Numbered from the stretch's first letter, positions 5,659 to 60,167 are shown. The stretch is 64,000 nt of DNA from Escherichia coli (GCF_003991155.1 NZ_CP031293.1); one strand, 5' to 3'. The notes: generated by a model from the letters alone, not told the origin. Made by a program: numbers and translations.

Positions 5659-5669
5659 ATATTGTGTCC

Positions 5670-6488: not shown

Positions 6489-6492
6489 GGCC

Positions 6493-7836: not shown

Positions 7837-7838
7837 TG

Positions 7839-9667: not shown

Positions 9668-9671
9668 AAAA

Positions 9672-12505: not shown

Positions 12506-12509
12506 CAGA

Positions 12510-12938
12510 TTACTCCACACACCAATGCTGGTGGTTATCCAGCAAAATATCAAATTCCAGAACATCCTGTCGGTCACTGAAATCTATGTACGCTACAATA
12601 TGAAAACCTAGCTCCAGTGGCGCGTGCATTTCCTCTTCGGCAGCACTAACCACCACATCAGAAATGCGGGGTTCGTAACGCAGAATGCTATTTTTAATAG
12701 CCAGAATCATCCAGTCCCGGATGTTCATGGAGTCAGGGGAGCCATCATTAAAATCTACAATCCCAAGCTCCGGAGAACCGTGGCAACTACCAGAACGGGT
12801 GTTGAGTATATTGCGCAGGTTATTGCGAACAGAATGCAACAACGCCACCTTTGGACGTTGACGCGAAGAGGGATTTACCGCCTCACCAATACGCTCAAAC
12901 AAACTTCCTCCCGACTCCCGTTCCGTTACCATGCTCAC
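12510..12938 (-). CDS. tssE: TssE (gp25-like) baseplate protein
   Basis: 142 aa; ATGA overlap with tssC stop; gp25-like size and position. Confidence 0.8.
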   Translation of the reverse strand: MSMVTERESGGSLFERIGEAVNPSSRQRPKVALLHSVRNNLRNILNTRSGSCHGSPELGIVDFNDGSPDSMNIRDWMILAIKNSILRYEPRISDVVVSAAEEEMHAPLELGFHIVAYIDFSDRQDVLEFDILLDNHQHWCVE

Positions 12939-14419: not shown

Positions 14420-14438
14420 ACTGAAGTCCTTGTACAAG

Positions 14439-14945
14439 TTATTTCCGGCCTGCGAGGCCCAGCTCTGCAATCAGTTGCTCACGGCTCTTTTCGTCATCAA
14501 GCAATGCCTGAAGTTGTGCACGGAACGCAGGGATATTGCCCATTGGCCCCCGAAGCGCCACCAATGCTTCGCGTAGTTCCAGCATTTTGCGCATCTCCGG
14601 CACCTGGGAGGCAATGTTGTCCGGAGAAAGATCGGCCAGCGAGCTGATTTTCAGATTTACGCTCATGCGCGTATCAGGCGTTTCGCTGAGAGCAGACGGA
14701 ACGGTGAAATCACGACCAATCCCTGCCTGATCCAGCACTGCGTTAAAGTTGTTGCGGTTGATGGCAACGGGCTGGCGCTCATCCAGTGGCGTGTTATCTG
14801 CATCACCTGTCAAATTGCCAGTAACCAACAGATTTAGCGGTAATTCCACTTCTGCTGTCTGATTCCCCGTTTTTGGCTTAAATTTAATATTTACTCTTTC
14901 TTTTGGGGCAATACTGCCACCACCGTCATTTCTTCTGCTGCTCAT
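14439..14945 (-). CDS. tssB: TssB/VipA sheath small subunit
   Basis: ORF 14439..15026; probable start MSSRRNDGGGS at 14945 (168 aa). Confidence 0.8.
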   Translation of the reverse strand: MSSRRNDGGGSIAPKERVNIKFKPKTGNQTAEVELPLNLLVTGNLTGDADNTPLDERQPVAINRNNFNAVLDQAGIGRDFTVPSALSETPDTRMSVNLKISSLADLSPDNIASQVPEMRKMLELREALVALRGPMGNIPAFRAQLQALLDDEKSREQLIAELGLAGRK

Positions 14946-15627: not shown

Positions 15628-16146
15628 ATGCCAACACCGTGTTATATCTCAATTACTGGTCAGACCCAGGGAAACATCACCGCAGGTGCATTTACTGCTG
15701 ATTCCGTCGGCAATATCTACGTGCAGGGCCATGAAGATGAAATGCTGGTGCAGGAATTCCTGCATAACGTCACCGTCCCGACGGACCCACAATCTGGCCA
15801 GCCAGCCGGACAGCGCGCTCACAAGCCATTTATCTTCACTGTGGCGCTGAACAAAGCAGTCCCCCTGCTGTACAACGCGCTGGCCTCCGGTGAAATGCTG
15901 CCTACCACTGAACTGCACTGGTGGCGTACCTCTGTGGAAGGCAAACAGGAACATTACTTCACTACCCGCCTGACAGACTCGACAATTGTTGATATGAAGT
16001 TGCATATGCCGCACTGCCAGGACCCGGCAAAACGCGAGTTCACCCAGTTACTCGAAGTTTCGCTGGCCTACCGCAAAATCGAGTGGGAACACGTTAAGTC
16101 AGGCACTTCTGGCGCTGACGACTGGCGTGCACCGCTGGAAGCATAA
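15628..16146 (+). CDS. hcp: Hcp (TssD) T6SS tube protein
   Basis: Start MPTPCYISITGQTQG at 15628 with AAGGAG RBS; 172 aa. Confidence 0.9.
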   Translation: MPTPCYISITGQTQGNITAGAFTADSVGNIYVQGHEDEMLVQEFLHNVTVPTDPQSGQPAGQRAHKPFIFTVALNKAVPLLYNALASGEMLPTTELHWWRTSVEGKQEHYFTTRLTDSTIVDMKLHMPHCQDPAKREFTQLLEVSLAYRKIEWEHVKSGTSGADDWRAPLEA

Positions 16147-22500: not shown

Positions 22501-23961
22501 ATGCCAACGAAGCAGAATGCCGGGGACCACCGGGCCGGCTCGGATGAGCGGAATAAAAGCCTGAAGCGCCAGTGGCTGTATGACAAAGCGTATAATCTGA
22601 CCGCAATCGCCGACTCGCTGCGCGGCTCCATGTTCAACACCATCACGGCGAACGACCAGATAAGCCACGCCACCTGGACGGGTGATTCCAGTCAGTTTCC
22701 GCTGTGTGAGGAACTGTTCACTTACGACAAAAACCTGAACATCACCCGCCGCCAGACCCGGGTGAATGACATACTGGAAAGCGAAACGCACCAGCAGAAC
22801 CGGCATGGACGGGTGATATCAAGTGAGCATGAAGGCTGGCGGCACTCAACGCACCGCATCAATCCGCAGACAGGAAAACCGGAAGAAGGGAAATTTGTCC
22901 GGGTGGTGAACGCCCATAACGTCACCTGGAAATACGATGTTAACGGCAGGCTGATACAGAAGCTGGTCGATAAAGGCGGTTACCGACCGCTGGAATGGCG
23001 CTACAGATGGGACGCGCGCAGCCAGCTAACCGGGCTGGAAACCCCGGATGGTGAACGCTGGGAATACAAATACGACCCCTTCGGCAGGCGCATCAGCAAG
23101 CGCTGCACCAACCGCGACAAACCCGGTATGGATTTTCACTGGAATGGCGACCAGTTGACGGAGGAAATTCCGGTCGGCGCTGACAGTAGTCCTGATACTG
23201 AAAACAGCATCCGCTGGATATATGAGCCGGGAAGTTTTACACCGATTGCGCGTTATGAGAAGGGGCAACTGCATTATGCAGTGACGAACACGGTTGGCCG
23301 CGTACAGGAACTGCTGACAGAAAACGGCCTGATAGTCTGGAAAGGCAAGCAGCAGCTATGGGGCCGTGAGGAAGGCAGAAATAAGAAAGATGCGCCCACA
23401 TGCCGGTTACGTTTTCCGGGGCAGTACGAGGATGTGGAATCAGGGTTGTACTATAACCGGTTCCGGTACTATGATTGCGAGACAGGACAATATCTGTGTG
23501 CTGATCCGTCAGGATTGGACGGAGGGATTAATCCATATGGGTATGTGCATAATCCATTAGGGTGGGCAGACCCTTTTGGGCTAGCCAAAAAGAACGCTCA
23601 GAATACAGTTTTCAGATATCTGAGTGCAGACGATCGTATTCGATATGAGAATGGTCAAAGTTTATTACCTAAAGGTGAGTTTGGTTCAATAGTTGAACAT
23701 GTTGATGGAAAAAATACAGGACATATTTCTGCATCGCTTACCAAGTGTGCAGCTAAAATATTTGATTCGGGCAATGGGTATATAGAAATTGATGTTCAAA
23801 AAATTATCGACAGTGGTATATCATTTATTGATCACAAGAATGTTATGCAAGCGGTTCGTCGTAGCGGCTCTTTAACTAACAGGAGAGATGCCGAAAGAGC
23901 ACTAGAAGTTCTCTTCAAAGGTGAAATTCCCTTTGATGCAATTATTCGTCATGTTATATAA
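19543..23961 (+). CDS. rhs: PAAR-like/Rhs repeat effector with variable C-terminal toxin domain
   Basis: 1472 aa; N-terminal PAAR-like region, Lys/Ala-rich linker, YD repeats, core ending in DPSGLDGGINPYGYVHNPLGWADPFGL, then ~125 aa unique C-terminus. Confidence 0.9.
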   Translation: MADNFTARKHGQWKVISTKPDVCKTPRGDSTPPVPYPVTANMAEAVMVVQSVKLNGCPAVVLNQSTIPQTKGDAAGAAKGVSSGTVGDVCEPLDHSETVFFGGKPILRHHDEFWMNSRNTIGLIVGQPPPAGVPAEEADPPDEPETEEEEEKSSWLDWVQTGLDIAGFAPGFGFFADMLNAGISLARGNYADAFMSVAASLPGIGDAAAAGRMAVKGRKAAKAAKEAAERAAKKKLEKEAAMRSRALRKAQKKAAAKKKGGIVKGKAKNNKGKGKGAESSDCTKPGEPVDAGTGDFLQHFSVLSLPGSLPLTLSRFYRSQAQHGGIFGPKWTDEWSVSLKVHTDGNLHFTDGEGVELYYPIPQDGIFEGAANSRQAHYRLTGDMSGELSLSDRRTQQTQIFSQAGTGTYLLSALHDNYGNRIDFIRTDGLLTEIRHSDGYTLALAWLQQQLMSIDLATPRRQRLVTCQYDDNGYLAECDTFQFSHLWHEYTTEGFMTRWRDTDKTCVDIRYDPQGRAISTLSTEGYYDDRFIYNDEEHCTTYVDAEGGETRYWYNEDGLVTHSTDPLGREEITVWENTQLQSRTDALGRKTAYEYNDEGDIWHVALPGGYSLYYDYNDAGQLTRLTLPGDQVWLWDYDDKGSMVCLTDPQGRKQQFSYSQQGDLLARIMPGGATWRWSHDALHQVRETTAPDGGVTQTEQDMLGRLLSVKDPLGFTTQFRHSKTHAGPLGSVEEINRPDGVRELMRQNSEKLPESFTDGEGKTTRYEYGAFDLLTAVIRPDGERLECRYDKLTRLTEITNAEGEHYRLEYDKAGQLIAETDFTGRTLTYSYDAAGRCTRTTFPDGTHLNRRYNVTDQVTDEEVTQGDSNRTLSATTFLYDTLCRLVEAKNDDAIVTYEYDSASRVVAETINGRRTEYSYDNNLDTVSQRTTAGITEHFTRNLMGYLTTWQIADHAPLTFEHDLRGMETSRRSEAGFYQTLAYTRTGMPTKQNAGDHRAGSDERNKSLKRQWLYDKAYNLTAIADSLRGSMFNTITANDQISHATWTGDSSQFPLCEELFTYDKNLNITRRQTRVNDILESETHQQNRHGRVISSEHEGWRHSTHRINPQTGKPEEGKFVRVVNAHNVTWKYDVNGRLIQKLVDKGGYRPLEWRYRWDARSQLTGLETPDGERWEYKYDPFGRRISKRCTNRDKPGMDFHWNGDQLTEEIPVGADSSPDTENSIRWIYEPGSFTPIARYEKGQLHYAVTNTVGRVQELLTENGLIVWKGKQQLWGREEGRNKKDAPTCRLRFPGQYEDVESGLYYNRFRYYDCETGQYLCADPSGLDGGINPYGYVHNPLGWADPFGLAKKNAQNTVFRYLSADDRIRYENGQSLLPKGEFGSIVEHVDGKNTGHISASLTKCAAKIFDSGNGYIEIDVQKIIDSGISFIDHKNVMQAVRRSGSLTNRRDAERALEVLFKGEIPFDAIIRHVI

Positions 23962-23980
23962 AATAGGAAGGAGTGGAATA

Positions 23981-24274
23981 ATGCCTGCACTATCTGAGTA
24001 CTCGAATGTACACAACACTGTTTTTAATATTTTGATTTGTAAAGGATATCGATTGTGGCATGAAAAAAAACAAGAAAGATATTATGCCGAAAAAGATGGT
24101 TGGGATTTTGTAGCCAATAGCCCGTGTGCTCTCTTGGGGCTCATTGCTATTTATGAATATAAAAAACCCGATCATTATTATGAGTACTGGTGGAAAGATG
24201 AAGGATTACATTTAGAAAAAAACATTAGTGAAATCGCTCCTGAATATAACTCAATCATTTTAAAAAATAATTAG
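23981..24274 (+). CDS. Putative immunity protein for Rhs C-terminal toxin
   Basis: Start MPALSEYS at 23981 with AGGAAGGAG RBS, immediately after rhs stop; AT-rich small ORF. Confidence 0.5.
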   Translation: MPALSEYSNVHNTVFNILICKGYRLWHEKKQERYYAEKDGWDFVANSPCALLGLIAIYEYKKPDHYYEYWWKDEGLHLEKNISEIAPEYNSIILKNN

Positions 24275-24289
24275 TTGTATACTACTATG

Positions 24290-26030
24290 ATGATGACTCG
24301 GTAATAATAACAAACGAAACCCTCAACGGCAGACGGACGGAATATGGCCACGACGCAGAACAGGATTATGTCACCCGGCGCACCACCGCAGGCATTACGG
24401 AACGTTTCACCCGCGGGTTGATGGGTGAGCTGACATCGTGGCAGATAGCCGACCATGCGCCGCTGGCATTTGAATATGACCTGCGCGGCCAGGAAACATC
24501 CAGACAAAGCGAGGCCGGATTTTACCAGACGCAGGGCTACACGCAGACAGGAATGCTGACAACGCAGCGTTCGGGAAGCCAGGCAGAGCCGGAGGCGAAG
24601 AATAAAGACCTGCAACGCCAGTGGCTGTACGACCATGCGTATAACCTGACGATGATATCGGACACGCTGCGCGGGACGATGGTCAACAGCGTGACAGCGA
24701 ACGACCAGATAAGCCATGCCACCTGGACGGGCAGCAGTAATATGCCGATGAGTGAGGAACGCTTCCTCTACGACAAAAACCTGAATATCACCGCCGCCAG
24801 ACCTGGGTGAACGAGGTACTGGAGAGCGAGACACATCAGCAGCAACAGCATGGCCGGGTGGCGTCGCGTGGACACAAAGAATGGCGACACTCAACGCACC
24901 GGATTAACCCGGACACTGGCAAGCCGGAGGAAGGGAAATTTGTCCGGGTGGTCAACGCGCACGGTATCACCTGGAAGTACGATATTAACGGTCGTCTGGT
25001 GGAGAAGCTGGTCGATAAAGGTGGCTATCGCCCTCTCCAGTGGCGTTACAAATGGGATTCACGCAGCCAGTTGACCGGGCTGGAAACACCGGATGGTGAA
25101 CGCTGGGAGTATAAATACGACCCGTTCGGCAGGCGCATCAGCAAACGCTGTACCAGCCACGATAAACCCGGTATGGATTTTCACTGGAACGGCGACCAGT
25201 TGACGGAGGAAATTCCGGTTGGTGTGGATGGCAAACCGGAAGACGAAAACGCCATCCGCTGGATATACGAGCCGGGAGATTTCACGCCGTTTGCGCGTTA
25301 TGAGAAGGGGCAACTGAATTATGCGGTGACGGACACGGTTGGACGAGTACAGGAACTGCTGACCGAAGACGGCCTGATTGTCTGGAAAGGCAAGCAGCAG
25401 CTATGGGGACGTGAGGAAGGCATCAATAAGGGCGATGCACCCACCTGTCGGTTACGTTTTCCGGGGCAGTATGAGGACACAGAATCGGGACTGTACTATA
25501 ACCGGTTCCGGTACTATGATTGCGGGACGGGGCAGTATATCTCTTCAGATCCGATTGGGCTGAGAGGGGGAATAAAACCATATGGCTATGTTCATAGTCC
25601 ATTAAATTATATTGACCCATTAGGTTTAGCTAACGCTAAAGTTATAGATAATGTTTTGCATATTGTGGATAAATTTGGAGTAAATGGGGCTGCTCCTGAT
25701 ACTGCAGCATCCAGAGAATTGGCTGAGTTTGTAAAAAGATGGAACGAGCAGATAGTGGCGAATGGTGGTTCAATGGCCAGACGTTCTGTTTGTAAAGAAG
25801 TCAGAAAAGCAGCAAGTGAAGCCGCCGCTGCTGAGAGAAAACTTAACCCAAGTTTATATGCTAATGGTGAAGTGGCGGGGCATATTCCAGATGTTGGATG
25901 GGGTGGAAAAATTGATGGTCCGTTTATGCCGTTAAGTCCAAAAGTAAATTCTTATATTGGTGGGTTAACTCAAGCAGTGCCTGTTGGTACAACTTATACA
26001 TCGGTAAGAATAGTGGACATTATACTATGA
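24290..26030 (+). CDS. Orphan rhs C-terminal cassette 1 (core fragment + distinct toxin tip), frameshifted near 24793
   Basis: Nucleotide and protein similarity to 22270..23580 of the main rhs; 1-bp deletion (atcaccgccgccagac vs atcacccgccgccagac) breaks the frame; ORF 24807..26030 carries DPLGL followed by a different C-terminus. Confidence 0.75.
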
Positions 26031-26554
26031 AAAAATTAAAAGAATTGATTAACGATATTTTGGTTGATTTAAAAATAAATATAACGGAATTACCTGTCAC
26101 TTTACACAGCCATGATAAAGTACCCACGCTAAAAAAAGATTACTATAGAAATCTTAGCCCTATGCTAAAGGTTAGATTTGGTATGTTCTCTAGTTGGAAG
26201 AATGCAACACATGGGGATTGGCTTTCAATAGAAGAGATGATGGAAATTTGGCGTGATGATTTGGTAATAAATGACCGATTGTGGCGAATTAAGGAGAATC
26301 AGATAGCTGCTCGTAATAATTGGGACAATGATGCTTCTTCGCTTTTCAAAAATAATAGATTATCACTTTTTGCTGGAAGTGAGTCTACCTATGAACGAAT
26401 ATATCTGCTTTGGTTAGATAGTGAAATTGAACCTGAGATATGGGTATATGACTGCAATGGTGAATCGAGATATAAAAATCTAGAGTCTTATTTAAATGCA
26501 TATATAAATGACGATGTTAGTGCTAGTAATGAGTCATGGAGAGCCAAATACTGA
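26027..26554 (+). CDS. Putative immunity protein for orphan toxin 1
   Basis: 175 aa, ATGA overlap with toxin stop, AT-rich. Confidence 0.5.
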   Translation: MKKLKELINDILVDLKINITELPVTLHSHDKVPTLKKDYYRNLSPMLKVRFGMFSSWKNATHGDWLSIEEMMEIWRDDLVINDRLWRIKENQIAARNNWDNDASSLFKNNRLSLFAGSESTYERIYLLWLDSEIEPEIWVYDCNGESRYKNLESYLNAYINDDVSASNESWRAKY

Positions 26555-26704
26555 CGCAGCGACAGTCACCCAGTTAGAGTGAGAGCATGAAAAATATGTT
26601 TTTATACAATATTTTATCGCTATATTTTTGTCATCTGTTTTTGCGCGAAAATCACTCGACAATTTGCATGATATAACCAATTACTCATTAAATTTACCTG
26701 CAGC

Positions 26705-28310
26705 CTAGTAGGGCTGTCTGACCACCTGGCAGATAGCGGACCATGCCCCGCTGACATTTGAGCATGACCTGCGCGGCATGGAAACCTCCCGACGCAGCGG
26801 GGCCGGATTTTACCAGACGCTGGCTTACACGCGCACAGGGATGCCAGCGAAGCAGAATGCCGGGGACCACCAGGCCGGGCCGCATGAGCGAAATAAAAGC
26901 CTGGAGCGGGAATGGCTTTACGACAAAGCGTATAACCTGACCGCAATCGCCGACTCGCTGCGCGGCTCCATGTTCAACACCATCACGGCAAACGACCAGA
27001 TAAGCCACGCCACCTGGACGGGTGATTCCAGCCAGTTTCCGCTGTGCGAGGAGCTGTTCACTTACGATAAAAACCTGAACATCACCCGCCGCCAGACCCG
27101 TGTGAATAACGTCCTGGAAAGCGAAACGCACCAGCAACAGCAGCATGGCCGGGTGATATCCAGTGAGCATGAAGGCTGGCGGCACTCAACGCACCGCATC
27201 AATCCGCAGACAGGAAAACCGGAAGAAGGGAAATTTGTCCGGGTGGTGAATGCCCATAACATCACCTGGAAATACGATGTTAACGGCAGGCTGGTACAGA
27301 AGCTGGTCGATAAAGGTGGCTACCGCCCTCTCGAATGGCGCTACAGATGGGATGCAAGAAGCCAGCTAACCGGACTGGAAACCCCGGATGGCGAACGCTG
27401 GGAATATAAATACGACCCGTTTGGCAGGCGCATCAGCAAACGCTGCACCAACCGCGACAAACCCGGCATGGATTTTCACTGGAACGGCGACCAGCTAACG
27501 GAGGAAATTCCGGTTGGCGTTAACGGTAAACCGGAAGACGAAAACGCCATCCGCTGGATATACGAGCCGGGAGATTTCACGCCGTTTGCGCGTTATGAGA
27601 AGGGGCAACTGAATTATGCGGTGACGGACACGGTTGGACGAGTACAGGAACTGCTGACCGAAGACGGCCTGATTGTCTGGAAAGGCAAGCAGCAGCTATG
27701 GGGACGTGAGGAAGGCATCAATAAGGGCGATGCACCCACCTGTCGGTTACGTTTTCCGGGGCAGTATGAGGACACAGAATCGGGACTGTACTATAACCGG
27801 TTCCGGTACTATGATTGCGAGACGGGGCAGTATATCTCTTCAGATCCCATAGGATTACTTGGGGGGATAAATCCTTATGGATATGTTCGTAACTCGCTGG
27901 AATTGATTGACCCTTGGGGGCTAGACAGTAAACGCGCTCGACTCCTCAAACAAAAAGGATTCCAAGAACATCATATTATCAGCGATAAAAACAGCTTAAC
28001 CAAAAACCATCCATTGTTGAAGGCCGCGGCATACGACCTACAGAAAATGAAAAACAAGATTTTCTTACCTACAAAATGTGAACTTCATGCAACTCGATCC
28101 ATTCATAAAGGGAGGCATCAAAAAAAGGTAAGTGAAAACCTGGCAAATGAAATGGACAAAGTGTTAGAACACGGGAGAAAACATGGGTGGACGCAAAAAC
28201 AATACAGTGACGCACTTGACGAAATAGTTGCTAAAGAAAGAGCCCTCTTGAAATCTGGCCATAGAGCTTTAAATAAAAACAGACGTGCATGGTCTGTTTT
28301 ACTAACTTAA
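26705..28310 (+). CDS. Orphan rhs C-terminal cassette 2 with HNH/AHH-like nuclease tip
   Basis: Similarity to main rhs from ~22380 onward; core ends DPWGL; C-terminus has EHHIIS ... H ... H pattern resembling the AHH-type HNH nuclease toxin domain. Confidence 0.7.
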
Positions 28311-28322
28311 CAGAGAAAATAT

Positions 28323-28880
28323 ATGTATAGATGGACAATCCCAGAACAATATGCCAATAAGTATATTGGAGAATATCAATATGAATCTTTTGATTACTTA
28401 CTTTTTTCTCATAGCACACCAATTGAAAGAGTTGAGAATATCAATCCAGTCATTATCTACGCGATGCCCGATGAAATGATAAATAAATATGATTGCTTGC
28501 CAAATAGTTCATTGATCCCCGTAGTTAATGAACGACTAAAGGACTTCCTGGAAACACATGCCAAAGGTAATGTTGAGTTTCATAAAATAGACCTTCACAC
28601 GAACAATGGACTCAAAGATGGTTTTTATCTTTTGAATACACTCACAAAACTACCGTTAATTGATATGCAGCACTCTCATTGCCAGTATATTCCCGGAACA
28701 ACAGCGATCATGGGGTTTGAACAGGTTTTTTTTATTGAAGAGCCTCCGGAAGATTTTTGCATTGCACGATGCGCAGAATATTCATCTTATCTTATGTTAT
28801 CTGATTCATTAGTAAAAAAAATGAAAAAAGAAAAATTTAAAGGAATTTCATATTCGAAAGTTCCTGTTCACCGAGGTTAA
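28323..28880 (+). CDS. Putative immunity protein for orphan toxin 2
   Basis: 185 aa ORF 13 nt after the toxin stop; AT-rich. Confidence 0.5.
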   Translation: MYRWTIPEQYANKYIGEYQYESFDYLLFSHSTPIERVENINPVIIYAMPDEMINKYDCLPNSSLIPVVNERLKDFLETHAKGNVEFHKIDLHTNNGLKDGFYLLNTLTKLPLIDMQHSHCQYIPGTTAIMGFEQVFFIEEPPEDFCIARCAEYSSYLMLSDSLVKKMKKEKFKGISYSKVPVHRG

Positions 28881-28966
28881 AATAATTGGACATATAACAA
28901 ATATATTAAATCGGTAGCATCTCCAGGGAAGGATCATCGTATTCGTATGCCGTAGGCACGCCGTAA

Positions 28967-29360
28967 TCTGGTATAACGAAGACGGCCTGCTCACCCGCAG
29001 CACCGACCCGCTCGGTCGGGAAGAGATTACGGTATGGGAGAACACGCAACTCCAGTCACGCACCGATGCACTGGGGCGTAAAACAGCGTATGAATACAAC
29101 GATGAGGGCGATATCTGGCACGTCGCCCTGCCGGGTGGTTACAGTCTGTACTATGACTACAACGACGCCGGACAGTTAACCCGCCTGACCCTGCCGGGCG
29201 ACCAGGTATGGCAGTGGGATTACGACGATAAGGGCAGCATGGTCTGCCTGACCGACCCGCAGGGCCGGAAACAGCAGTTCAGCTACTGCGCACAGGGGGA
29301 TTTACTGGCGCGGATTATGCCGGGCGGAGCCACCTGGCGCTGGAGCCATGACGCCCCAGG
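28967..29360 (+). pseudogene. Internal rhs core fragment
   Basis: Translation WYNEDGLLTRSTDPLGREEITVWENTQLQSRTDALGRKTAYEYNDEGDIWHVALPGG matches the main rhs at ~21185..21585; no start or stop context. Confidence 0.8.
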
Positions 29361-38008: not shown

Positions 38009-38084
38009 TCCTCTGTAGTTCAGTCGGTAGAACGGCGGACTGTTAATCCGTATGTCACTGGTTCGAGTCCAGTCAGAGGAGCCA
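38009..38084 (+). tRNA. asnV: tRNA-Asn (anticodon GTT)
   Basis: 76 nt TCCTCTGTAGTTCAGTCGGTAGAACGGCGGACTGTTAATCCGTATGTCACTGGTTCGAGTCCAGTCAGAGGAGCCA; cloverleaf consistent, anticodon GTT at 38042..38044; gene symbol inferred from position next to nac. Confidence 0.9.
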
Positions 38085-38250: not shown

Positions 38251-39513
38251 ATGGCATTAACAGACACCGCTATTCGCAAGACTAAACCCTCTGACAAACC
38301 CTTCAAAATGACGGACAGTTCTGGACTGTACCTGTTGATCAAACCTAACGGCTCAAAACTCTGGTATATGAAGTACCGCATCGACGGCAAAGAGAAGAAA
38401 CTGGCCTTTGGCCCCTACCCGGAGATCTCCCTGTTGCAGGCTCGCCGCCTGCGCGAAACAGCACGCAATAACATTCATGCAGGCGTCGATCCGGCTGCGG
38501 TGAAGCAAACCGAGAAACAGAAGAGGAAAAACGGGCAGACGTTCAGCCAGATCGCCATCAACTGGCATAGCGAGCATAAACGCTGGTCTGAGCATTACGC
38601 GAAAACGGTTATGCGCAGGCTGGAAATGTACGTTTTCCCGGATATCGGGGATCGCCTTATCGAGGAGATCGAAACGGAGGATTTGTTATTCACGTTGCGC
38701 AAGGTAGAGAGTAAAGGCTTTCTGGAAATCACCGCGCGGCTGAAAAACTACGTCACCGATATCATGCACTACGCGATGAAAAAGAAACTGCTCAAAGCGA
38801 ACCCGGCGCTGTATCTGGACGGTGAGTTTGCCGCGCCAGAAACCAGTCACTACCCGGCCCTGTCGCTGGACAAATTGCCTGAGCTTTTAACCCGGACGGA
38901 TAGCTACTGCGGCAGGCTGCTGACAAAATACGCGCTTAAGCTGTCGCTGATTTTTTTTGTGCGCTCCAGCGAACTACGCTTTGCGCGCTGGAGTGAGATC
39001 GACTGGCAGCAGAAGTTATGGATAATCCCGGAAGAGCGCGAACAGATCGAAAACGTGCGCTTCTCTTACCGGGGGTCGAAAATGAAAATCCAGCACATTG
39101 TGCCGCTGTCGGATCAGGCGATTGCGATACTGAAACAGATCGAGGCCCTCTCCGGGCATCTGGCCTTTATTTTTCCCGGCGAATACGACCAGGACAAGTG
39201 CATGAGCGACAACACCGTCAACAAGGCGCTGCGCGTGATGGGTTACGACACCAAAAAGGATATCTGCGGGCATGGCTTCCGGGCAATGGCCTGTAGTGCG
39301 CTGAGCGAATCGGGATTATGGAGCAAAGAAGCCATTGAAAAGCAGATGAGCCACCAGGAAAGAAACAGCGTCCGTGCTGCCTATATTCACAAGGCTGAAT
39401 ATCTGGAGGAACGGATCGAGATGATGCAGTGGTGGTCAGATTATCTTGATGCAAACAGTGACGGGTATGTCTCGGCTTACCAGTATGCCCGCCGCCTAAA
39501 ACAGGCGTCGTAA
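38251..39513 (+). CDS. int: P4-like tyrosine integrase
   Basis: ORF 38227..39513; probable start MALTDTAIRKTKP at 38251; phage-integrase family features; lies directly 3' of the tRNA. Confidence 0.85.
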   Translation: MALTDTAIRKTKPSDKPFKMTDSSGLYLLIKPNGSKLWYMKYRIDGKEKKLAFGPYPEISLLQARRLRETARNNIHAGVDPAAVKQTEKQKRKNGQTFSQIAINWHSEHKRWSEHYAKTVMRRLEMYVFPDIGDRLIEEIETEDLLFTLRKVESKGFLEITARLKNYVTDIMHYAMKKKLLKANPALYLDGEFAAPETSHYPALSLDKLPELLTRTDSYCGRLLTKYALKLSLIFFVRSSELRFARWSEIDWQQKLWIIPEEREQIENVRFSYRGSKMKIQHIVPLSDQAIAILKQIEALSGHLAFIFPGEYDQDKCMSDNTVNKALRVMGYDTKKDICGHGFRAMACSALSESGLWSKEAIEKQMSHQERNSVRAAYIHKAEYLEERIEMMQWWSDYLDANSDGYVSAYQYARRLKQAS

Positions 39514-39636: not shown

Positions 39637-39954
39637 ATGAAAACGATAAAGACCTACATAACTGCCGACGGGCGAGATCTGTATGCAGAGTTTTTTAAAG
39701 GGTTACGCGACCCCATCGCGAAGGCAAAGATCGCTTCCCGGATCAACCGGATGGCTTCGGACAATTTTGGCGACCATAAGCCCTGCCGGGAAGGTGTCTG
39801 GGAACTCAGGATAGATCAAGGGGCTGGGTATCGGGTTTATTACAGCCTGGTGGATGGAGAAGTCGTCCTGTTGATTCTGGCTGGCGACAAGCGTACGCAG
39901 GATGCAGATATAGATGAGGCTATTCGCTGCCTCAAAGACTATTTGAAGAGGTGA
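39637..39954 (+). CDS. RelE/ParE-superfamily toxin, HigB-like
   Basis: 105 aa; 3 nt before the antitoxin-like gene; toxin-first order typical of HigBA. Confidence 0.6.
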   Translation: MKTIKTYITADGRDLYAEFFKGLRDPIAKAKIASRINRMASDNFGDHKPCREGVWELRIDQGAGYRVYYSLVDGEVVLLILAGDKRTQDADIDEAIRCLKDYLKR

Positions 39955-39957
39955 TGT

Positions 39958-40266
39958 ATGGCGAAAGAACGTTTATATGATGATGTCATGGTGGAAGCGC
40001 TCCGGGAAGATCCTGCTTTTGCTCAGGCCTATCTGCATCAGGCATTTCTGGATATGGATGAAGATGGCGGTCAGGAAGCTTTTTTACTCGCGTTACGCCA
40101 TGTTGTTGAAGCGCGGGGAGGAATGGCGACGGTTGCCCAGAAAGCCGGTGTATCGCGTGAATCACTGTACCGCACGCTCTCCCCGACCGGCAACCCGACA
40201 CTGAAAACACTCCGCAGCGTCGTCCACGCCGCAGGTTTTCAGTTCTCTGCGCTGGCAAGTGCCTGA
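39958..40266 (+). CDS. HigA-like antitoxin (HTH)
   Basis: 102 aa; sequence resembles addiction-module antidote proteins (GVSRESLYRTLSPTGNPTLKTL helix-turn-helix region). Confidence 0.6.
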   Translation: MAKERLYDDVMVEALREDPAFAQAYLHQAFLDMDEDGGQEAFLLALRHVVEARGGMATVAQKAGVSRESLYRTLSPTGNPTLKTLRSVVHAAGFQFSALASA

Positions 40267-41794: not shown

Positions 41795-44700
41795 CTATAA
41801 ACGACCAAAAGAGACAATTTCCCCTGTATCTACCGCAACATCAATATATCTTCCGTTCTTTCTATATCTCCACACATTTTCAGTATAACCAGAAACTTTG
41901 GTTGGTTTTATTCTTCTCAAGTTCTCAGAAAAAACCTTAGCTTTATTTAGATATTGCTCTACCGTTTCTGCACCAACTTCACGACCATGTTTTCTGAAGT
42001 GCTCCAGTAATGACTCTGCCGGAGTATCCCAACTTCCTTTACTCCATAGTTTTTTACAATTTACTTCTTGCAGGAATGCAAATAATGCCGATAAACCTAA
42101 AGGGTCAATATAACTAAATGGGTTCTGTACATATGAATATGGATTTAATCCCCCAAGTAACCCAATGGGATCTGCCGAAATATACTGCGCCGTATCAGGA
42201 TCATAGTACCTGAACCGGTTATAGTACAGTCCTGATTCCGTATCTTCGTACTGCCCCGGAAAACGCAGGCGGCAGTCAGGCGCATCATCCTTGTTTCTGC
42301 CTTCTTCCCGGCCCCAAAGTTGCTGTTTTCCCCGCCAGACAATCGTGCCGTCTTCGGTCAGCAACTCCTGGACACGACCGACCGTATCCGTCACCGCGTA
42401 ATGCAGCAAGCCTTTCTCATAACGTGCCAGCGGTGTAAAACTTCCCGGTTCATATATCCAGCGAATGGCATTTTCATATTCTGGTTTGCCATCAGTACCA
42501 ACAGGAATTTCTTCGGTTAACTGATCGCCATTCCAGTGGAAATCCATTCCGGACTTATCACGGTTGGTACACCGTTTGCTGATGCGCCTGCCAAACGGGT
42601 CGTATTTATACTCCCAGCGTTCCCCCTCCGGCGTTTCAAGCCCGGTAAGCTGACTTCTGGCATCCCAGCGATAGCGCCATTCGAGCGGACGATAGCCGCC
42701 TTTATCGACCAGTTTCTCCACCAGGCGACCATTAGCATCGTACGTCCAGGTAATATTGTGCTCATTCACCACCCGGACAAATTTTCCCTCTTCCGGCTTT
42801 CCTGTGTCCGGGTTGATGCGGTGTGTCTGATGCCGCCAGCCTTTGTGCTCTCTGGAAACAACTCTTCCATGCCGCAACTGCTGGTGTGTCTCGCTTTCCA
42901 GCACCTCATTTACCCATGTCTGGCGGCGGGCAATATTCAGGTTTTTGTCATAAGTGAACAGTTCCTCACACAGCGGAAACTCCCGGGAATCGCCCGTCCA
43001 GGTGGCATGGCTTACCTGGTCGTTAACCGTCATATTGTTGAAGGCTGATCCCCGCAGCGAGTCTGATATTACCGTCAGGTTGTACGCCTTGTCATACAGC
43101 CACTGGCGCTCCAGGCTTTTGTTCCGTTCGTACGGCCCGGCCTGGTGGTCCCCGGCATTCTGCTTCGCTGGCATCCCTGTGCGCGTGTATGCCAGCGTCT
43201 GGTAAAACCCGGCCTCGCTCCGCCTGGACGTTTCCAGGCCGCGCAGGTCGTGCTCAAATGTCAGCGGGGCATGGTCCGCTATCTGCCAGGATGCCAGATG
43301 CCCCATCAGGTTTCGGGTAAAGCGTTCTGTGATACCTGCTGTGGTGCGCTGTGTGACCGTATCCAGGTCAGGGTCGTAACGGTATTCTGTGCGCCTGCCG
43401 TTCAGCGTTTCGGCAACAATCTGGTTTGCATCGTTATATTCAAATGTAACGGTGGCATCGTCATTCTTCGCTTCCACCAGACGACGCTGCGTGTCGTAAC
43501 GAAATGTGGTGACACTCAGAGTTCGGTCACTGTTGCCCTGTGTGACTTCCTCGTCCGTCACCTGGTCATTCACGTTGTAGCGGCGGTTAAGGTGAGTGCC
43601 GTCCGGGAAGCTGGTGCGAATACAACGCCCGACGGCATCGTAGGTGTAGTTCAGCGTGCGTCCGGTGAAGTCTGTTTCTGCTACAAGCTGCCCGGCTTTA
43701 TCATATTTAAGACGGTAGCGCTCGCCTTCGGCGTTGGTAATTTCGGTCAGGCGGGTCAGTTTATCGTAGCGACACGCCAGCCGCTCGCCGTCAGGACGCA
43801 CCAGAGCCGTGAGCAGATCGAATGCACCGTATTCGTAACGGGTGGTTTTGCCCTCGCCATCGGTAAAGCTTTCCGGTAGCTTTTCGCTGTTCTGGCGCAT
43901 CAGTTCCCGCACGCCGTCCGGGCGCTGGATTTCTTCCACGCAGCCCTGTGGCCCGGCGTGGATTTTGCTGTGACGAAACTGCGTGGTGAAGCCAAGTGGG
44001 TCTTTCACACTTAACAGTCGGCCCAGCATATCCTGTTCGGTCTGCGTGATGCCGCCGTCTGGCGCAACAGTCTCGCGCACCTGATGCAGGGCGTCATGAC
44101 TCCAGCACCAGGTGGCCCCGCCCGGCAGAATCCGTGCAAGCAAATCACCCTGTTCACTGTAGCTGAACTGCTGTTTCCGGCCCTGAGGGTCGATCAGGCT
44201 GATTATGCTGCCCCGATCATCATAGACCCATTGCCACGCCTGATTATCAGTTGTCGACAGCCGGGTTAACTGACCGGTATCATTATACTCGTAGAACAGG
44301 CCATAGCCGCCCGGCAGGGCAACCTGGATAACCTCACCTTCCCGGTTATAGCGGTACGCCGTGGTACGCCCCAGCGCATCGGTGCGTGACTGAAGCCGGG
44401 CATTATTCCAGACGGTAATTTCTTCCCGCCCCAGCGGATCGATACAGCGGGTGACCAGGCCGTCCTCGTTATACCAGTAACGGGTTTCGCCCCCTTCTGC
44501 ATCCAGGTAGGTGGTGCATTTTTCATCATCGTTATAGATAAAGCGGTCATCGAAGTAGCCTTCCGTTGACAGTGTGCTGACAGCGCGCCCCTGCGGATCA
44601 TAGCGGATATCCACACAGGTTTTGTCCGTATCCCGCCAGCGGGTCATAAAGCCTTCTGATGTGTACTCATGCCATAAATGCGAGAACTGGAAGGTATCGC

Positions 44701-45985
44701 ATTCTGCCATAAAACCATTGTCATCATACTGGCAGGTCACAAGACGCTGACGCTGCGGCGTTGCCAGGTCAATGCTCATCAGCTGAGCCTGTTGCCAGGC
44801 AAGGGCGAGCATATAGCCATCGCTGTGACGGATTTCTGTCAGCAGACCATCAGTGCGGATAAAATCAATCCGGTTGCCATAATTATCGAAGACAGCGGAC
44901 AACCGCCAGACGCCATTGCCTGCCGGGGAAAAGAGCTGTGTCTGCTGCGAACGGCGATCGAAAACGCTCACGCCATCGCGCAGGCTTCCCGTCAGCCGGT
45001 AGTACGCCTGGCGTGAGTTCACTGCACCGCGAAAGATACCGTCCTGCGGCAGGCGGTAATACAGTACAACGCCTTCACTGTCGGTAAAATGCAGCCGGTT
45101 ACCCTGTATCGTCAGCGACGCTGACCACTCATCGGTCCATTTCGGGCCGAAAATCCCGGTCCCCCTGGCCTGTGAGCGGTAAAAACGCGAGAGCGTCAGC
45201 GGCAGGGAACCCGGCAGCGAAAGCACGCTGAAATGCTGGAGAAAATCGCCGGTGCCAATATCCACAGGCTCACCGGGTTTGGTGCACAACTGAGCACCAA
45301 CACATTTACTCTGATCACCAGTTCCCTCGGTTTCACCTTTAATATTTGCGCCATCCTGGCCTTCGGGTATGACATCATCCGCCAACTTTTCTGCGTCACT
45401 GACAACATCGTCTGCTTTGTTTACCTTCAGCAGATCGGCGGTGAATTTCCCCGCCGCTGCTTCTTCTCGTGCCAGTTTACTGGCAGTCCGCATCGCTCTA
45501 AGACCCACGAACCCGCCTCGGGCCAGACCATATCCTCCCAGCGCCAGCGAGCCATGGTCATAAATCATGCCGCCAATTTCCTGGTTCCTGTTGCTCATTT
45601 CCAGACGGTACATGTCCAGATTGAAATCTCCCGCATGCTCCCGGAGATCTCCGCCCATGTTGTACATATCCTCGCCAATATCATCCATGCCCATCGCAGA
45701 AAGCATGGCGCCGTTCATCTGCATTTCTCCGGCATACTGCATGGTGGCCCCCTGGCCTATCATCGTCGCCATATCCGGGAACTGGTTCCAGAATGCTTTG
45801 GCAGCACCAATAGCCAAATCAAGCTGGACTGCCGAAGCTTCAATTTTCGCCCGACTTTCATCCATCTGGATCATCAACATCATGTCCCAGATACTTTGCT
45901 CTTCTTTTGTTTCTGGCTCTGGCGCAGGGTCAGCTTCGCTGGCGGAAATAGCGGCTTCAGGGGGCTGACCGATAATTAAACCCGT
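41795..45985 (-). CDS. rhs: Rhs repeat effector 2, 5'-truncated by the IS3-family element
   Basis: ORF 41795..45883; frame stays open upstream to the IS end (~45985) and encodes ...GLIIGQPPEAAISASEADPAPEPETKEE, matching the linker after the PAAR domain of Rhs1; YD repeats; DPIGLLGGLNPYSYVQNPFSYIDPLGL then a unique C-terminus. Confidence 0.85.
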   Translation of the reverse strand, partial: TGLIIGQPPEAAISASEADPAPEPETKEEQSIWDMMLMIQMDESRAKIEASAVQLDLAIGAAKAFWNQFPDMATMIGQGATMQYAGEMQMNGAMLSAMGMDDIGEDMYNMGGDLREHAGDFNLDMYRLEMSNRNQEIGGMIYDHGSLALGGYGLARGGFVGLRAMRTASKLAREEAAAGKFTADLLKVNKADDVVSDAEKLADDVIPEGQDGANIKGETEGTGDQSKCVGAQLCTKPGEPVDIGTGDFLQHFSVLSLPGSLPLTLSRFYRSQARGTGIFGPKWTDEWSASLTIQGNRLHFTDSEGVVLYYRLPQDGIFRGAVNSRQAYYRLTGSLRDGVSVFDRRSQQTQLFSPAGNGVWRLSAVFDNYGNRIDFIRTDGLLTEIRHSDGYMLALAWQQAQLMSIDLATPQRQRLVTCQYDDNGFMAECDTFQFSHLWHEYTSEGFMTRWRDTDKTCVDIRYDPQGRAVSTLSTEGYFDDRFIYNDDEKCTTYLDAEGGETRYWYNEDGLVTRCIDPLGREEITVWNNARLQSRTDALGRTTAYRYNREGEVIQVALPGGYGLFYEYNDTGQLTRLSTTDNQAWQWVYDDRGSIISLIDPQGRKQQFSYSEQGDLLARILPGGATWCWSHDALHQVRETVAPDGGITQTEQDMLGRLLSVKDPLGFTTQFRHSKIHAGPQGCVEEIQRPDGVRELMRQNSEKLPESFTDGEGKTTRYEYGAFDLLTALVRPDGERLACRYDKLTRLTEITNAEGERYRLKYDKAGQLVAETDFTGRTLNYTYDAVGRCIRTSFPDGTHLNRRYNVNDQVTDEEVTQGNSDRTLSVTTFRYDTQRRLVEAKNDDATVTFEYNDANQIVAETLNGRRTEYRYDPDLDTVTQRTTAGITERFTRNLMGHLASWQIADHAPLTFEHDLRGLETSRRSEAGFYQTLAYTRTGMPAKQNAGDHQAGPYERNKSLERQWLYDKAYNLTVISDSLRGSAFNNMTVNDQVSHATWTGDSREFPLCEELFTYDKNLNIARRQTWVNEVLESETHQQLRHGRVVSREHKGWRHQTHRINPDTGKPEEGKFVRVVNEHNITWTYDANGRLVEKLVDKGGYRPLEWRYRWDARSQLTGLETPEGERWEYKYDPFGRRISKRCTNRDKSGMDFHWNGDQLTEEIPVGTDGKPEYENAIRWIYEPGSFTPLARYEKGLLHYAVTDTVGRVQELLTEDGTIVWRGKQQLWGREEGRNKDDAPDCRLRFPGQYEDTESGLYYNRFRYYDPDTAQYISADPIGLLGGLNPYSYVQNPFSYIDPLGLSALFAFLQEVNCKKLWSKGSWDTPAESLLEHFRKHGREVGAETVEQYLNKAKVFSENLRRIKPTKVSGYTENVWRYRKNGRYIDVAVDTGEIVSFGRL

Positions 45986-48453: not shown

Positions 48454-48717
48454 ATGAAACCATTAATAACGCTTGGGGATAAAACATCTCATGGTGGTGT
48501 TGTAATTAGTGCCAGTGCAAATTTTTTGCATGAGGGACAGCCTGTCGCCTGTGATGGTGACCAGGTAACTTGTCCGATAGAAGGCCATGGGCCAGCAAAA
48601 ATCATAGCATCTGGACAGGGGTTTTCTATAAATGGGAAACAGGCTGCACATGATGGCGATAAAACAACCTGTGGGGCAACGCTGATAGCCAGTCATTTTA
48701 TTGTGCGTCATAAGTAA
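48454..48717 (+). CDS. Stand-alone PAAR-domain protein
   Basis: 87 aa with three PAAR-like motifs (LGDKTSHGG; CDGDQVTC; HDGDKTTCG). Confidence 0.8.
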   Translation: MKPLITLGDKTSHGGVVISASANFLHEGQPVACDGDQVTCPIEGHGPAKIIASGQGFSINGKQAAHDGDKTTCGATLIASHFIVRHK

Positions 48718-49243: not shown

Positions 49244-57223
<7,980 letters not shown>

Positions 57224-57244
57224 TTTTCCGCTATAATTTCTTAA

Positions 57245-57273
57245 AGAGTGCTCCATTCGGGGCACTCTTTTTT
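57245..57273 (+). terminator. Rho-independent terminator after yeeJ
   Basis: AGAGTGCTCC-ATTC-GGGGCACTCT followed by TTTTT. Confidence 0.7.
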
Positions 57274-57483: not shown

Positions 57484-58536
57484 TCATATTCTCGCCAAAA
57501 CACTTTTTAATGCCTTTGCGAATTCATCCAGACTTATATTGTCAATTTTTTGCCCAACGACGACTGACTCCGAAACATCGGCCATTGCTGGCCATCGCGT
57601 TTTGTAATCAGCATAAATTGCAACAACGGGGGTATTATAGGCACTTGCCATATGTAATATTGAGGTGTCAGGAGTTATTGCGATATAAGCATCTTTTATG
57701 ATTGCTGCTGAACGTTTAATCGAGGGTGATAAGGATAAACGGTAGACATTATTATAACAATCCACTAACACCCTGGCTTTTTCTTCCCCTTTTGGTCCAT
57801 GAACGATCACTATTGGTATATCTGTTTCACTTTGAATTTTTTCTATTATATTTTCTGCAATCGATAATAAAAATGTACGTTCCTGCGAGCTACCTTCTAA
57901 ATTAAGCGCAATGTAAGATCCTAACGATCGCATTTCCTCGCGCACCTCATCGAGTACATCCTTACTTAGTGGCAATTCATATATTGGCCTGACTGCTGGA
58001 AAACCCGCCTCACGCATCATAAATGCCCATGTCATGGGCACAGGAGCCCGGAGATTCTGATCCATCCGGGACGCGCTCTTACACAAAGGGGAATAGCACT
58101 TCATGGTTAAACCAACAACCTGAAAATTCGTTTTTGCTTTCAACTGACTGATAAATATCATCGTTTTCAGGTTCTTTTTACGCATCGCCTCTATACAAAG
58201 ATCCGGCGTACCGTATTGCTGTGTTATGTTCTTCGCTAAATCTTTTATTTCTTTTAATGTTGCGTGATCCTGCATAGTCATTGTGACTAATGTTAATTTA
58301 GTCTGTTCAAGTTTGAGCGCGTTAAAGACTTCTAAATTAATTGTCGACGTAACAATTAAAAGATGCTTAATTTTATGCAATTCAAGCGCCCTAATAACTG
58401 GAAAGATGGCCATAGCATCGCCAATCTGATCGGGAATATGGATAACAACAAACTCTGTTTTTTCAATATTGAAATTAAAAGCTTTATAATCGTAGTAACT
58501 AAATGCAATACGTCTCAACAATGATGCTAAAAACAT
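57484..58536 (-). CDS. yeeL: Glycosyltransferase family 9 (heptosyltransferase-like) protein, YeeL
   Basis: ORF 57484..58599, probable start MFLASLLRRIAF at 58536; uninterrupted. Confidence 0.7.
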   Translation of the reverse strand: MFLASLLRRIAFSYYDYKAFNFNIEKTEFVVIHIPDQIGDAMAIFPVIRALELHKIKHLLIVTSTINLEVFNALKLEQTKLTLVTMTMQDHATLKEIKDLAKNITQQYGTPDLCIEAMRKKNLKTMIFISQLKAKTNFQVVGLTMKCYSPLCKSASRMDQNLRAPVPMTWAFMMREAGFPAVRPIYELPLSKDVLDEVREEMRSLGSYIALNLEGSSQERTFLLSIAENIIEKIQSETDIPIVIVHGPKGEEKARVLVDCYNNVYRLSLSPSIKRSAAIIKDAYIAITPDTSILHMASAYNTPVVAIYADYKTRWPAMADVSESVVVGQKIDNISLDEFAKALKSVLARI

Positions 58537-58850
58537 AACTAACCCCGCTTCCCTACTGGTTATAATGCAATGCAGTTTATCAGACTCATCAGGGCGCAAT
58601 TTTGTGCATATGCGGACTTTTATGTTTCATATCTCGAATCTGTGGATCCTCTGCTTAATCCTTAAACAACACCAGCAACTCCTGCGCTTTCATCTACCAT
58701 CGAATTTTTCATGTTGCCGTTAATCAGCCATAAAATCATTTGCAGATGCGCTCTGTCGAGGTAGTCTCATAAGGTTCGTTTATAGATCGACGGCAATGTG
58801 AGTTACCTTTTCCATACTAATTATAAAAAGACAGTACAAACAGGATCATT

Positions 58851-60167
58851 ATGGACTCCACGCTCATCTCCACTCGTCCCGATGAAGGGACGCTTTCGTT
58901 AAGTCGCGCCCGACGAGCTGCGTTAGGCAGTTTCGCTGGTGCCGTCGTCGACTGGTATGATTTTTTACTCTATGGCATTACCGCCGCACTGGTGTTTAAT
59001 CGCGAGTTTTTCCCGCAAGTAAGCCCGGCTATGGGAACGCTCGCCGCATTTGCCACCTTTGGTGTCGGATTCCTGTTCCGTCCGCTCGGCGGTGTCATTT
59101 TCGGTCACTTTGGCGACCGACTGGGACGTAAGCGCATGTTAATGCTGACCGTCTGGATGATGGGTATCGCGACAGCCTTGATTGGTATTCTTCCTTCATT
59201 CTCGACTATTGGGTGGTGGGCCCCCATTTTACTGGTGACGCTGCGTGCCATTCAGGGATTTGCCGTCGGCGGCGAATGGGGAGGCGCGGCGTTACTTTCC
59301 GTTGAAAGTGCACCGAAAAATAAAAAAGCCTTTTACAGTAGCGGTGTACAAGTTGGCTACGGAGTAGGTTTACTGCTTTCGACAGGACTGGTTTCATTGA
59401 TCAGTATGATGACGACTGACGAACAGTTTTTAAGCTGGGGCTGGCGGATTCCTTTCCTGTTTAGCATCGTACTGGTACTGGGGGCATTGTGGGTGCGTAA
59501 TGGCATGGAGGAGTCCGCGGAATTTGAACAACAGCAACATAATCAAGCGGCCGCGAAAAAACGCATCCCGGTTATCGAAGCACTATTACGACATCCCGGT
59601 GCTTTCCTGAAGATTATTGCGCTACGACTGTGCGAGTTGCTGACGATGTACATCGTTACCGCCTTTGCACTTAATTATTCAACCCAGAATATGGGGTTAC
59701 CGCGCGAACTTTTCCTTAATATTGGTTTGCTGGTCGGTGGATTAAGCTGCCTGACAATTCCCTGTTTTGCCTGGCTTGCCGATCGTTTTGGTCGCCGCAG
59801 GGTTTATATCACAGGCGCGTTGATCGGAACGTTGAGCGCATTTCCTTTCTTTATGGCGCTTGAAGCACAATCTATTTTCTGGATAGTTTTCTTCTCCATA
59901 ATGCTGGCAAACATTGCGCATGACATGGTGGTGTGCGTGCAACAACCGATGTTTACCGAAATGTTTGGTGCCAGTTATCGCTATAGTGGCGCTGGAGTCG
60001 GATATCAGGTTGCCAGTGTGGTTGGCGGTGGATTTACACCTTTTATTGCCGCTGCACTCATCACTTACTTTGCCGGGAACTGGCATAGCGTCGCTATTTA
60101 TTTGCTGGCTGGATGCCTGATTTCCGCAATGACCGCTTTGTTGATGAAAGACAATCAACGCGCTTAA
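58851..60167 (+). CDS. shiA: Shikimate transporter (MFS)
   Basis: 438 aa, 12-TM major facilitator; recognised as ShiA. Confidence 0.9.
   Translation: MDSTLISTRPDEGTLSLSRARRAALGSFAGAVVDWYDFLLYGITAALVFNREFFPQVSPAMGTLAAFATFGVGFLFRPLGGVIFGHFGDRLGRKRMLMLTVWMMGIATALIGILPSFSTIGWWAPILLVTLRAIQGFAVGGEWGGAALLSVESAPKNKKAFYSSGVQVGYGVGLLLSTGLVSLISMMTTDEQFLSWGWRIPFLFSIVLVLGALWVRNGMEESAEFEQQQHNQAAAKKRIPVIEALLRHPGAFLKIIALRLCELLTMYIVTAFALNYSTQNMGLPRELFLNIGLLVGGLSCLTIPCFAWLADRFGRRRVYITGALIGTLSAFPFFMALEAQSIFWIVFFSIMLANIAHDMVVCVQQPMFTEMFGASYRYSGAGVGYQVASVVGGGFTPFIAAALITYFAGNWHSVAIYLLAGCLISAMTALLMKDNQRA

Follow-up and report, generated by a model that had tools for sequence, protein, structure and literature searches.

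Intact yeeL in Escherichia coli encodes a predicted family 9 glycosyltransferase that may act on lipopolysaccharide

The yeeL locus

The window analyzed here, a stretch of 64,000 nucleotides of Escherichia coli DNA (NZ_CP031293.1), matches the chromosome of E. coli CREC-544 (NZ_CP024826.1) at 100% identity and carries yeeL between yeeJ and shiA (Table 1), outside the waa locus, as is the case in every Enterobacterales context that we examined. In an ORF scan, the yeeL reading frame runs uninterrupted on the minus strand from an ATG at 58536 to a stop codon at 57484-57486, and the intact ORF of 350 amino acids described in an earlier sequence-only reading of this DNA is thereby borne out. A TTG further upstream (58599), which would give a protein of 371 amino acids, was dropped as a start; we place the start at the ATG because the N-termini of 30 homologs meet there, PGAP has the same 1053-nt CDS, and an SD-like GCGGGG, read from the sequence, lies 6 nt before it (58543-58548, minus strand). 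A consensus scan upstream of the gene yielded no convincing sigma-70 promoter. The G+C content of yeeL is 38.6%, against about 49% for the remainder of the window, and this low value suggests possible silencing by H-NS.

RefSeq already contains the intact gene: the CREC-544 entry for YeeL, named "glycosyltransferase family 9 protein" by PGAP, carries the accession given in Table 1, and exactly this protein is present on 210 contigs of the protein collection. The neighboring yeeJ measures 7980 nt here versus 7077 nt in K-12, a difference of +903 nt, and a long, UMN026-type yeeJ variant with an extra 906 bp has been described (PMC5595812).

Table 1. Coordinates of the features at the yeeL locus, counted from the first letter of the window
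Feature	Position	Strand	Remarks
yeeJ, inverse autotransporter adhesin, intact, long (UMN026-type) variant	49244..57223	plus	ORF and PGAP CDS, 7980 nt
Terminator-like hairpin, 12-bp stem and T-run	57243..57270	plus	Just after yeeJ, between the convergent yeeJ and yeeL
yeeL CDS, intact	57484..58536	minus	350 aa plus stop; GT9-family GT-B glycosyltransferase (predicted), RefSeq WP_063117475.1
Codons 290-295 of yeeL, D-T-S-I-L-H	57652..57669	minus	Predicted nucleotide-sugar binding motif, corresponding to WaaC D261-T262-G263...H266
Codon 235 of yeeL	57832..57834	minus	CAA (Gln) here, TAA in K-12 (Q235*); codon-by-codon comparison
Codons Gly39-Asp40 of yeeL, motif IPDQIGDAM after the first beta strand	58417..58422	minus	Proposed catalytic base
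Divergent intergenic region yeeL/shiA, 314 bp	58537..58850		Contains the SD-like GCGGGG; from sequence
shiA, shikimate transporter	58851..60167	plus	Divergent from yeeL; conserved syntenic partner in Escherichia and Pseudocitrobacter

Elsewhere in the window, we observe a complete type VI secretion cluster, with tss genes at about 1-14945, Hcp at 15628-16146, and VgrG at 16360-18348, followed by PAAR/Rhs effector-immunity modules (about 19543-29000), cbl/nac, and tRNA-Asn (38009-38084). Past the tRNA gene lie an integrase (38251-39513) and a RelE/ParE toxin-antitoxin pair (39637-40266), and further on Rhs genes (41795-45883), an IS3 element, and, immediately ahead of yeeJ, a PAAR gene (48454-48717). 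With this content of T6SS, Rhs, and integrase genes in positions 1-48717, the asn-tRNA region is heavily remodelled in this strain.

Comparison with K-12 and prevalence in E. coli

The yeeL ortholog of K-12, likewise situated between yeeJ and shiA, has the same length of 1053 nt, but the MG1655 annotation marks it as a pseudogene with an "internal stop." Gene-to-gene alignment shows no gaps over the 1053 nt and 41 nucleotide differences, with 18 amino-acid substitutions and a TAA at codon 235, where the window has CAA; this nonsense change, Q235*, is the only disabling change of the K-12 gene relative to the window. The sequence-only reading had described K-12 yeeL as a split pseudogene and proposed an alignment with it, and this description proves correct, with the K-12 disruption absent here. 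The K-12 fragment of 234 amino acids is a UniRef entry of its own, "Putative uncharacterized protein YeeL."

The same reading implied that an intact yeeL would be rare, a point that does not hold: an intact yeeL is what most E. coli have, and it is subject to purifying selection. Of 5426 complete E. coli genomes, 5283 (97%) contain the locus, in 4924 of them with at least 80% of the query covered. At 90% identity, the intact protein falls in a cluster of 10,923 sequences, partial ones included. Among 15 sampled genomes, mostly spread across the ranking of yeeL matches in complete genomes and with integrity taken from PGAP, yeeL is intact in 12 (about 80%), across phylogroups, and has an "internal stop" in the other 3, all K-12-like. 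An 81-mer centered on the K-12 TAA, searched as an exact match in the 5426 complete genomes, is found in about 765 of them and occurs with at least one mismatch in 3792; the exact 81-mer is carried by derivatives of K-12, by strain C, and by further isolates, both wild and clinical. Elsewhere the gene has been disrupted by IS1 or IS5-family elements, truncated or reduced to partial copies (many of these in Shigella sonnei), or deleted.

In pairwise comparisons, dN/dS is 0.17-0.33 for most E. coli alleles and 0.06-0.11 from one genus to another, a distance at which dS is saturated; since these values lie well below 1, the gene is kept by selection. It is K-12, and not this strain, that is the exception for yeeL: the intact gene is probably the ancestral form, with K-12 and its relatives bearing the derived nonsense allele Q235*.

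Protein family, predicted fold, and conserved residues

YeeL matches the Pfam family PF01075 (Glyco_transf_9) with 30.9 bits (cut-off, 22; E = 2.2e-7) over residues 208-321 only, and the heptosyltransferase-like assignment of the sequence-only reading stands at the level of GT9 and no further. With the match confined to the C-terminal lobe, the acceptor-binding lobe of YeeL is divergent. Furthermore, the protein scores far below the NCBIfam equivalog cut-offs for LPS core heptosyltransferases I, II, and III and RfaQ, namely TIGR02193 (37 bits versus 185.3), TIGR02195 (19.7 versus 134.6), TIGR02201 (17.2 versus 170.2), and RfaQ (NF007742; 15.8 versus 467). An AlphaFold model based on 30 homologs (pLDDT, 86.6; pTM, 0.85) is confident except for loop 141-162 and predicts a GT-B fold that is made up of two Rossmann-like lobes and is most similar to GT9 enzymes of solved structure; it begins with a helix (residues 2-13) followed by a regular beta-alpha-beta lobe. 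A PDB search with the single YeeL sequence returned nothing at E <= 1, and a profile search of PDB sequences matched WaaC (E = 7.5e-4) and WaaF (E = 0.038).

Across 30 family members, the residues G39, D40, R220, D290, T291, and H295 are invariant. Judging by motif position and by the WaaC literature, we take Asp40 to be the counterpart of WaaC Asp13, and the profile alignment puts D290, T291, and H295 on the VDTGLSH stretch of WaaC (2gt1, residues 260-266). The two lobes differ in net charge, with +9 for the N-lobe and -5 for the C-lobe. Cysteines are found only at positions 114, 147, 152, and 260, and C260, the sole cysteine of the C-lobe, is not conserved in the family. Based on these predictions, YeeL is plausibly an active cytoplasmic GT-B enzyme of the GT9 type, belonging to an unassigned subfamily.

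Loop 141-162 (about 58051-58116, minus strand) has a pLDDT below 50, yet it belongs to the most highly conserved segments of the family, with C147, C152, D159, Q160, and R163-P167 conserved in or near it and W170 just past it. Together with the conserved C114, this loop could form an acceptor-binding lid or a metal site.

Synteny and horizontal origin

The YeeL family occurs in only 22 genomes of our species-level scan, from the genera Escherichia, Hafnia, Pseudocitrobacter, Erwinia, Pantoea, Rosenbergiella, and Litchfieldella, together with a MAG labelled Nanosynbacter, whose copy, at 97% identity to that of E. coli, has the appearance of E. coli DNA. In Pseudocitrobacter and several non-coli Escherichia lineages, we observe the order mtfA - tRNA-Asn - yeeL - shiA - amn, with yeeL 50-380 bp from tRNA-Asn and yeeJ absent, and in E. 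coli proper yeeJ, or in other strains the HPI or Rhs/T6SS islands, lies between tRNA-Asn and yeeL. The adjacency to yeeJ would be secondary, with yeeJ, HPI, or Rhs/T6SS lying between tRNA-Asn and a yeeL that was there before. Tblastn with YeeJ found a YeeJ-like gene only in loci of E. coli-type sequence (the Nanosynbacter MAG included) and none within 10 kb of YeeL homologs outside E. coli.

Elsewhere the gene sits in varied surroundings. The E. albertii homolog lies between a tonB-position gene and yciA, that of one further genome between maeB and eut genes, and those of Erwinia, Pantoea, and Rosenbergiella beside MFS, LysR, or Tli4 genes. In Hafnia paralvei ATCC 29927 (L021, 9989-14884), the homolog lies about 1 kb from a cluster of gtrA, a gtrB-like GT2 gene, and GtrII; this is a cluster for O-antigen glucosylation, usually phage-derived, and an S24-peptidase-like ORF stands between it and the yeeL homolog. 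In 9 of 10 enterobacterial loci, the window among them, the G+C content of yeeL is 4-17 points under that of its flanks, Rosenbergiella being the exception. In Litchfieldella, the yeeL-like gene is inside an LPS cluster and equals its flanks in G+C.

One homolog is carried by a prophage. In Erwinia aphidicola (CP188307.1; L004, 8329-12397), it lies at 10001-11134 inside a P2-like prophage, on the opposite strand, with a G+C content of 42.5% versus 59% in the flanks, and it occupies the position between tail-fibre gene H and sheath gene FI, the slot of the Z/fun moron in P2. A phage origin of yeeL was nevertheless set aside, as tblastn against 50,697 phage records (INPHARED) and a scan of IMG/VR returned no phage copy; the Erwinia copy may therefore be a one-off. 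The PADLOC library of defense systems gave no match to YeeL. PHROGs contains one family, phrog_27389, of unannotated function, which is essentially full-length YeeL (E = 1e-227, 350/350 positions) and is uninformative because the family is YeeL itself; it probably stems from an over-extended prophage boundary or from a rare prophage copy like that of Erwinia. An nr entry of 353 amino acids (P0074) labelled "glutathione transporter [Rattus norvegicus]" shares 75% identity with YeeL across 88% of its length and looks like bacterial, E. coli-type DNA deposited as rat cDNA; it may be the retracted RsGshT clone.

The states of yeeJ and yeeL vary among the 15 sampled E. coli genomes: both genes are intact in 3, only yeeL in 9, and only yeeJ in 3, so that an intact yeeJ is the minority state (6 of 15). 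In the 9 genomes with only yeeL intact, yeeJ has been reduced to a remnant next to the HPI, interrupted by IS1203, or hit by frameshifts or stop codons. We dropped the pairing of dead yeeL with intact yeeJ (3/3) as a negative association, as these three genomes are all K-12-like; at 95.1-95.3% identity to the query and with an internal stop, they probably represent one clade and one event, the codon itself having been read in K-12 only. In the strains with the HPI, the yersiniabactin island (L014, L015, L052, L053, and L055), a yeeJ remnant of about 3 kb lies between fyuA and yeeL and consists of a 750-bp beta-domain ORF and a frameshifted Ig-like fragment, and yeeL is intact in all five. In E. 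coli strain 1613 (L046, 10552-13181), it is shiA, beside yeeL, that is split by IS1203; the YeeL protein of this strain equals that of the sampled O157:H7 strain, and in O157:H7 F7508 the IS1203 family splits yeeJ. The yeeJ/yeeL/shiA region is a local IS hotspot.

Distant relatives and a possible role in LPS synthesis

A HMMER search of 1.8 billion representatives recovered 33 YeeL relatives at E < 1e-30. We checked the gene context of five of the best full-length relatives, at 32-37% identity, four of which were informative, the fifth (P0110) being on a 1.6-kb contig with no usable context. All four informative relatives (E = 1e-65 to 1e-81) are found in LPS core or O-antigen-ligase clusters. 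In Litchfieldella (Halomonadaceae; L037), a kinase of the Kdo/WaaP family is directly upstream and GT4 genes stand on both sides; the neighbors of P0108 are a second GT9 gene, a GT4, two GT2, two Wzy_C, and an ABC1-like kinase gene; those of P0109 are an epimerase, GT2, Wzy_C, and GT4; and P0112 lies two genes from a Wzy_C gene in a cluster that also has Bac_transf, WecG-type, GT4, and flippase genes. In addition, in one relative that is 25% identical to YeeL (P0135), a Wzy_C (O-antigen ligase) domain and a YeeL-like domain are fused in a single protein.

Based on these contexts, we consider it somewhat more probable than otherwise that YeeL is an orphan, horizontally acquired enzyme from a small subfamily of GT9 and is directed at LPS. 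The protein would have descended from an LPS core glycosyltransferase that turned into a mobile stand-alone gene in Enterobacterales, and its acceptor would most likely be a lipid-linked oligosaccharide, either the LPS core or one related to it. If YeeL works like WaaC and WaaF, the positively charged N-terminal lobe (+9) may bind this acceptor on the inner side of the cytoplasmic membrane, where the invariant Asp40 would activate the acceptor hydroxyl, and the C-terminal lobe (R220, D290-T291...H295) would hold the nucleotide sugar, with ADP-heptose as the putative donor expected by default for GT9. The inferred LPS role draws on the gene context of relatives that are only 32-37% identical to YeeL. 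To our knowledge, all linkages in the E. coli R1-R4 and K-12 core structures are assigned to waa genes, with no obvious vacant step, which counts against an LPS role or implies that yeeL expression is low or conditional. A search of the literature for yeeL, judged by titles, found no experiment on YeeL function; the titles are mostly on metabolic engineering or unrelated subjects.

Alternative explanations

The sequence-only reading had suggested, as a speculation, that YeeL might glycosylate YeeJ in the manner of the autotransporter heptosyltransferases, and the convergent orientation, uncoupled integrity, synteny without yeeJ, and absence of BAHT features leave this suggestion unsupported. 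A dedicated enzyme of this kind would attach heptose to Ser/Thr residues of the passenger in the cytoplasm before export, like Aah for AIDA-I and TibC for TibA. The two genes, however, are convergent and not co-transcribed, a terminator-like hairpin separates them, and their integrity is uncoupled, with yeeL intact beside a dead yeeJ in 9/15 genomes and the opposite in 3/15. The yeeL locus is present in 97% of genomes versus 40% for intact yeeJ (PMC5595812), and yeeL keeps its synteny in Pseudocitrobacter and other Escherichia lineages that have no yeeJ, no YeeJ-like gene lying within 10 kb of any homolog outside E. coli. K-12, in which YeeJ was displayed and assayed for biofilm, is a natural yeeL null, and in this background YeeJ is surface-exposed and promotes biofilm formation (PMC5595812). 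The YeeJ study mentions neither yeeL nor glycosylation (PMC5595812), and YeeJ is absent from the main text of an ETEC O-glycoproteome paper. On the protein side, the YeeL profile search of PDB sequences did not retrieve TibC even at E <= 10; the four-Cys iron finger, N-terminal beta-barrel, and thumb are missing from YeeL; and YeeJ is a type Ve protein with Ig-like domains and not a beta-helical type Va SAAT. A dedicated YeeJ glycosyltransferase is hence very improbable, and glycosylation of YeeJ by YeeL is disfavoured rather than refuted. It is just as hard to credit that YeeL is a new, non-BAHT type of protein-directed glycosyltransferase for YeeJ or other surface proteins; if it were, YeeJ would be the first glycosylated inverse (type Ve) autotransporter, again with K-12 as natural null.

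Two further readings leave the gene product unconnected to YeeJ. YeeL may be active on an acceptor other than the LPS core or YeeJ, be it another lipid-linked glycan (ECA, O-unit, or capsule), a small molecule, or another protein. An N-lobe too divergent for Pfam and NCBIfam would fit such an acceptor, as would the position of yeeL, which in every Enterobacterales context examined lies away from the waa locus, and the conserved loop 141-162, with Cys147, Cys152, and a pLDDT below 50, could mark an unusual acceptor site; but the four informative distant relatives stand in LPS core or ligase clusters, one relative is fused to a WaaL-like domain, and the nearest solved structures are LPS heptosyltransferases, so that we regard another acceptor as rather unlikely, though worth keeping in view. 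Alternatively, yeeL could be intact but silent here, a cryptic, poorly expressed acquired gene that is nearing decay and whose integrity carries no phenotypic meaning. Its low G+C content relative to the rest of the window, the lack of a consensus promoter in our scan, and its repeated loss (K-12-lineage nonsense, IS1 and IS5-family insertion, truncation, including in S. sonnei, and deletion) agree with silence. A dN/dS well below 1 within the species and of 0.06-0.11 between genera, however, indicates long-term purifying selection, every catalytic-motif residue is kept, and about 80% of the sampled genomes, from various phylogroups, have an intact yeeL, including genomes in which yeeJ has decayed, which makes silence improbable. 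An LPS-directed enzyme remains the reading that we prefer.

Significance and comparison with known systems

The intact yeeL of this strain is the normal E. coli allele and carries little weight as a discovery. As for several surface-related genes, K-12 is the exception, so that knowledge gained in K-12 says nothing on the role of YeeL. If the LPS activity is real, about 80% of sampled E. coli would carry an enzyme that modifies the core or a glycolipid and that has escaped study because it is missing from the model strain, and this enzyme could affect recognition of phage receptors and sensitivity to serum or antimicrobial peptides. The lead is modest and testable, with K-12 as the natural null for a widely conserved putative surface-glycan enzyme.

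Compared with the autotransporter heptosyltransferases, yeeL differs in both gene arrangement and protein features. It is convergent with the gene of a type Ve adhesin, whereas a BAHT gene is upstream of, and co-oriented with, that of a type Va (SAAT) adhesin; aah-aidA and tibC-tibA are co-oriented operons. The pairing of yeeL with yeeJ is absent outside E. coli, and within E. coli the integrity of the two genes is uncoupled. The YeeL chain has 350 amino acids versus 381 residues in the solved TibC (PDB 4rap). TibC has an iron finger formed by four conserved cysteines in a C-lobe insertion (C339, C342, C358, and C370), as well as an N-terminal beta-barrel domain and a beta-hairpin thumb insertion (PMC4358343). 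The iron finger is absent in YeeL, which has only the nonconserved Cys260 in its C-lobe, and the secondary-structure string of the YeeL model predicts neither an extra barrel nor a protruding hairpin.

Among solved structures, the closest to YeeL are those of WaaC (HepI; 2gt1/2h1f) and WaaF (HepII; 1psw), both in CAZy family GT9, but identity is only 12%, the N-lobe of YeeL is unrecognised by Pfam, and yeeL is not in the waa cluster. A GT9 protein of Veillonella parvula, solved as a structural-genomics target (PDB 3tov), is 14% identical to YeeL; we know of no function assigned to it either, and the match adds nothing on the function of YeeL. The relatives in LPS clusters, from Litchfieldella and the metagenomic sequences P0108, P0109, and P0112, are homologous over the full length and of the same length as YeeL, and they are embedded among genes for a WaaP-like kinase, a WaaL-like ligase, and GT2/GT4 enzymes with a host-like G+C content, unlike the enterobacterial yeeL clade, in which an isolated gene of low G+C content is found in varied contexts.
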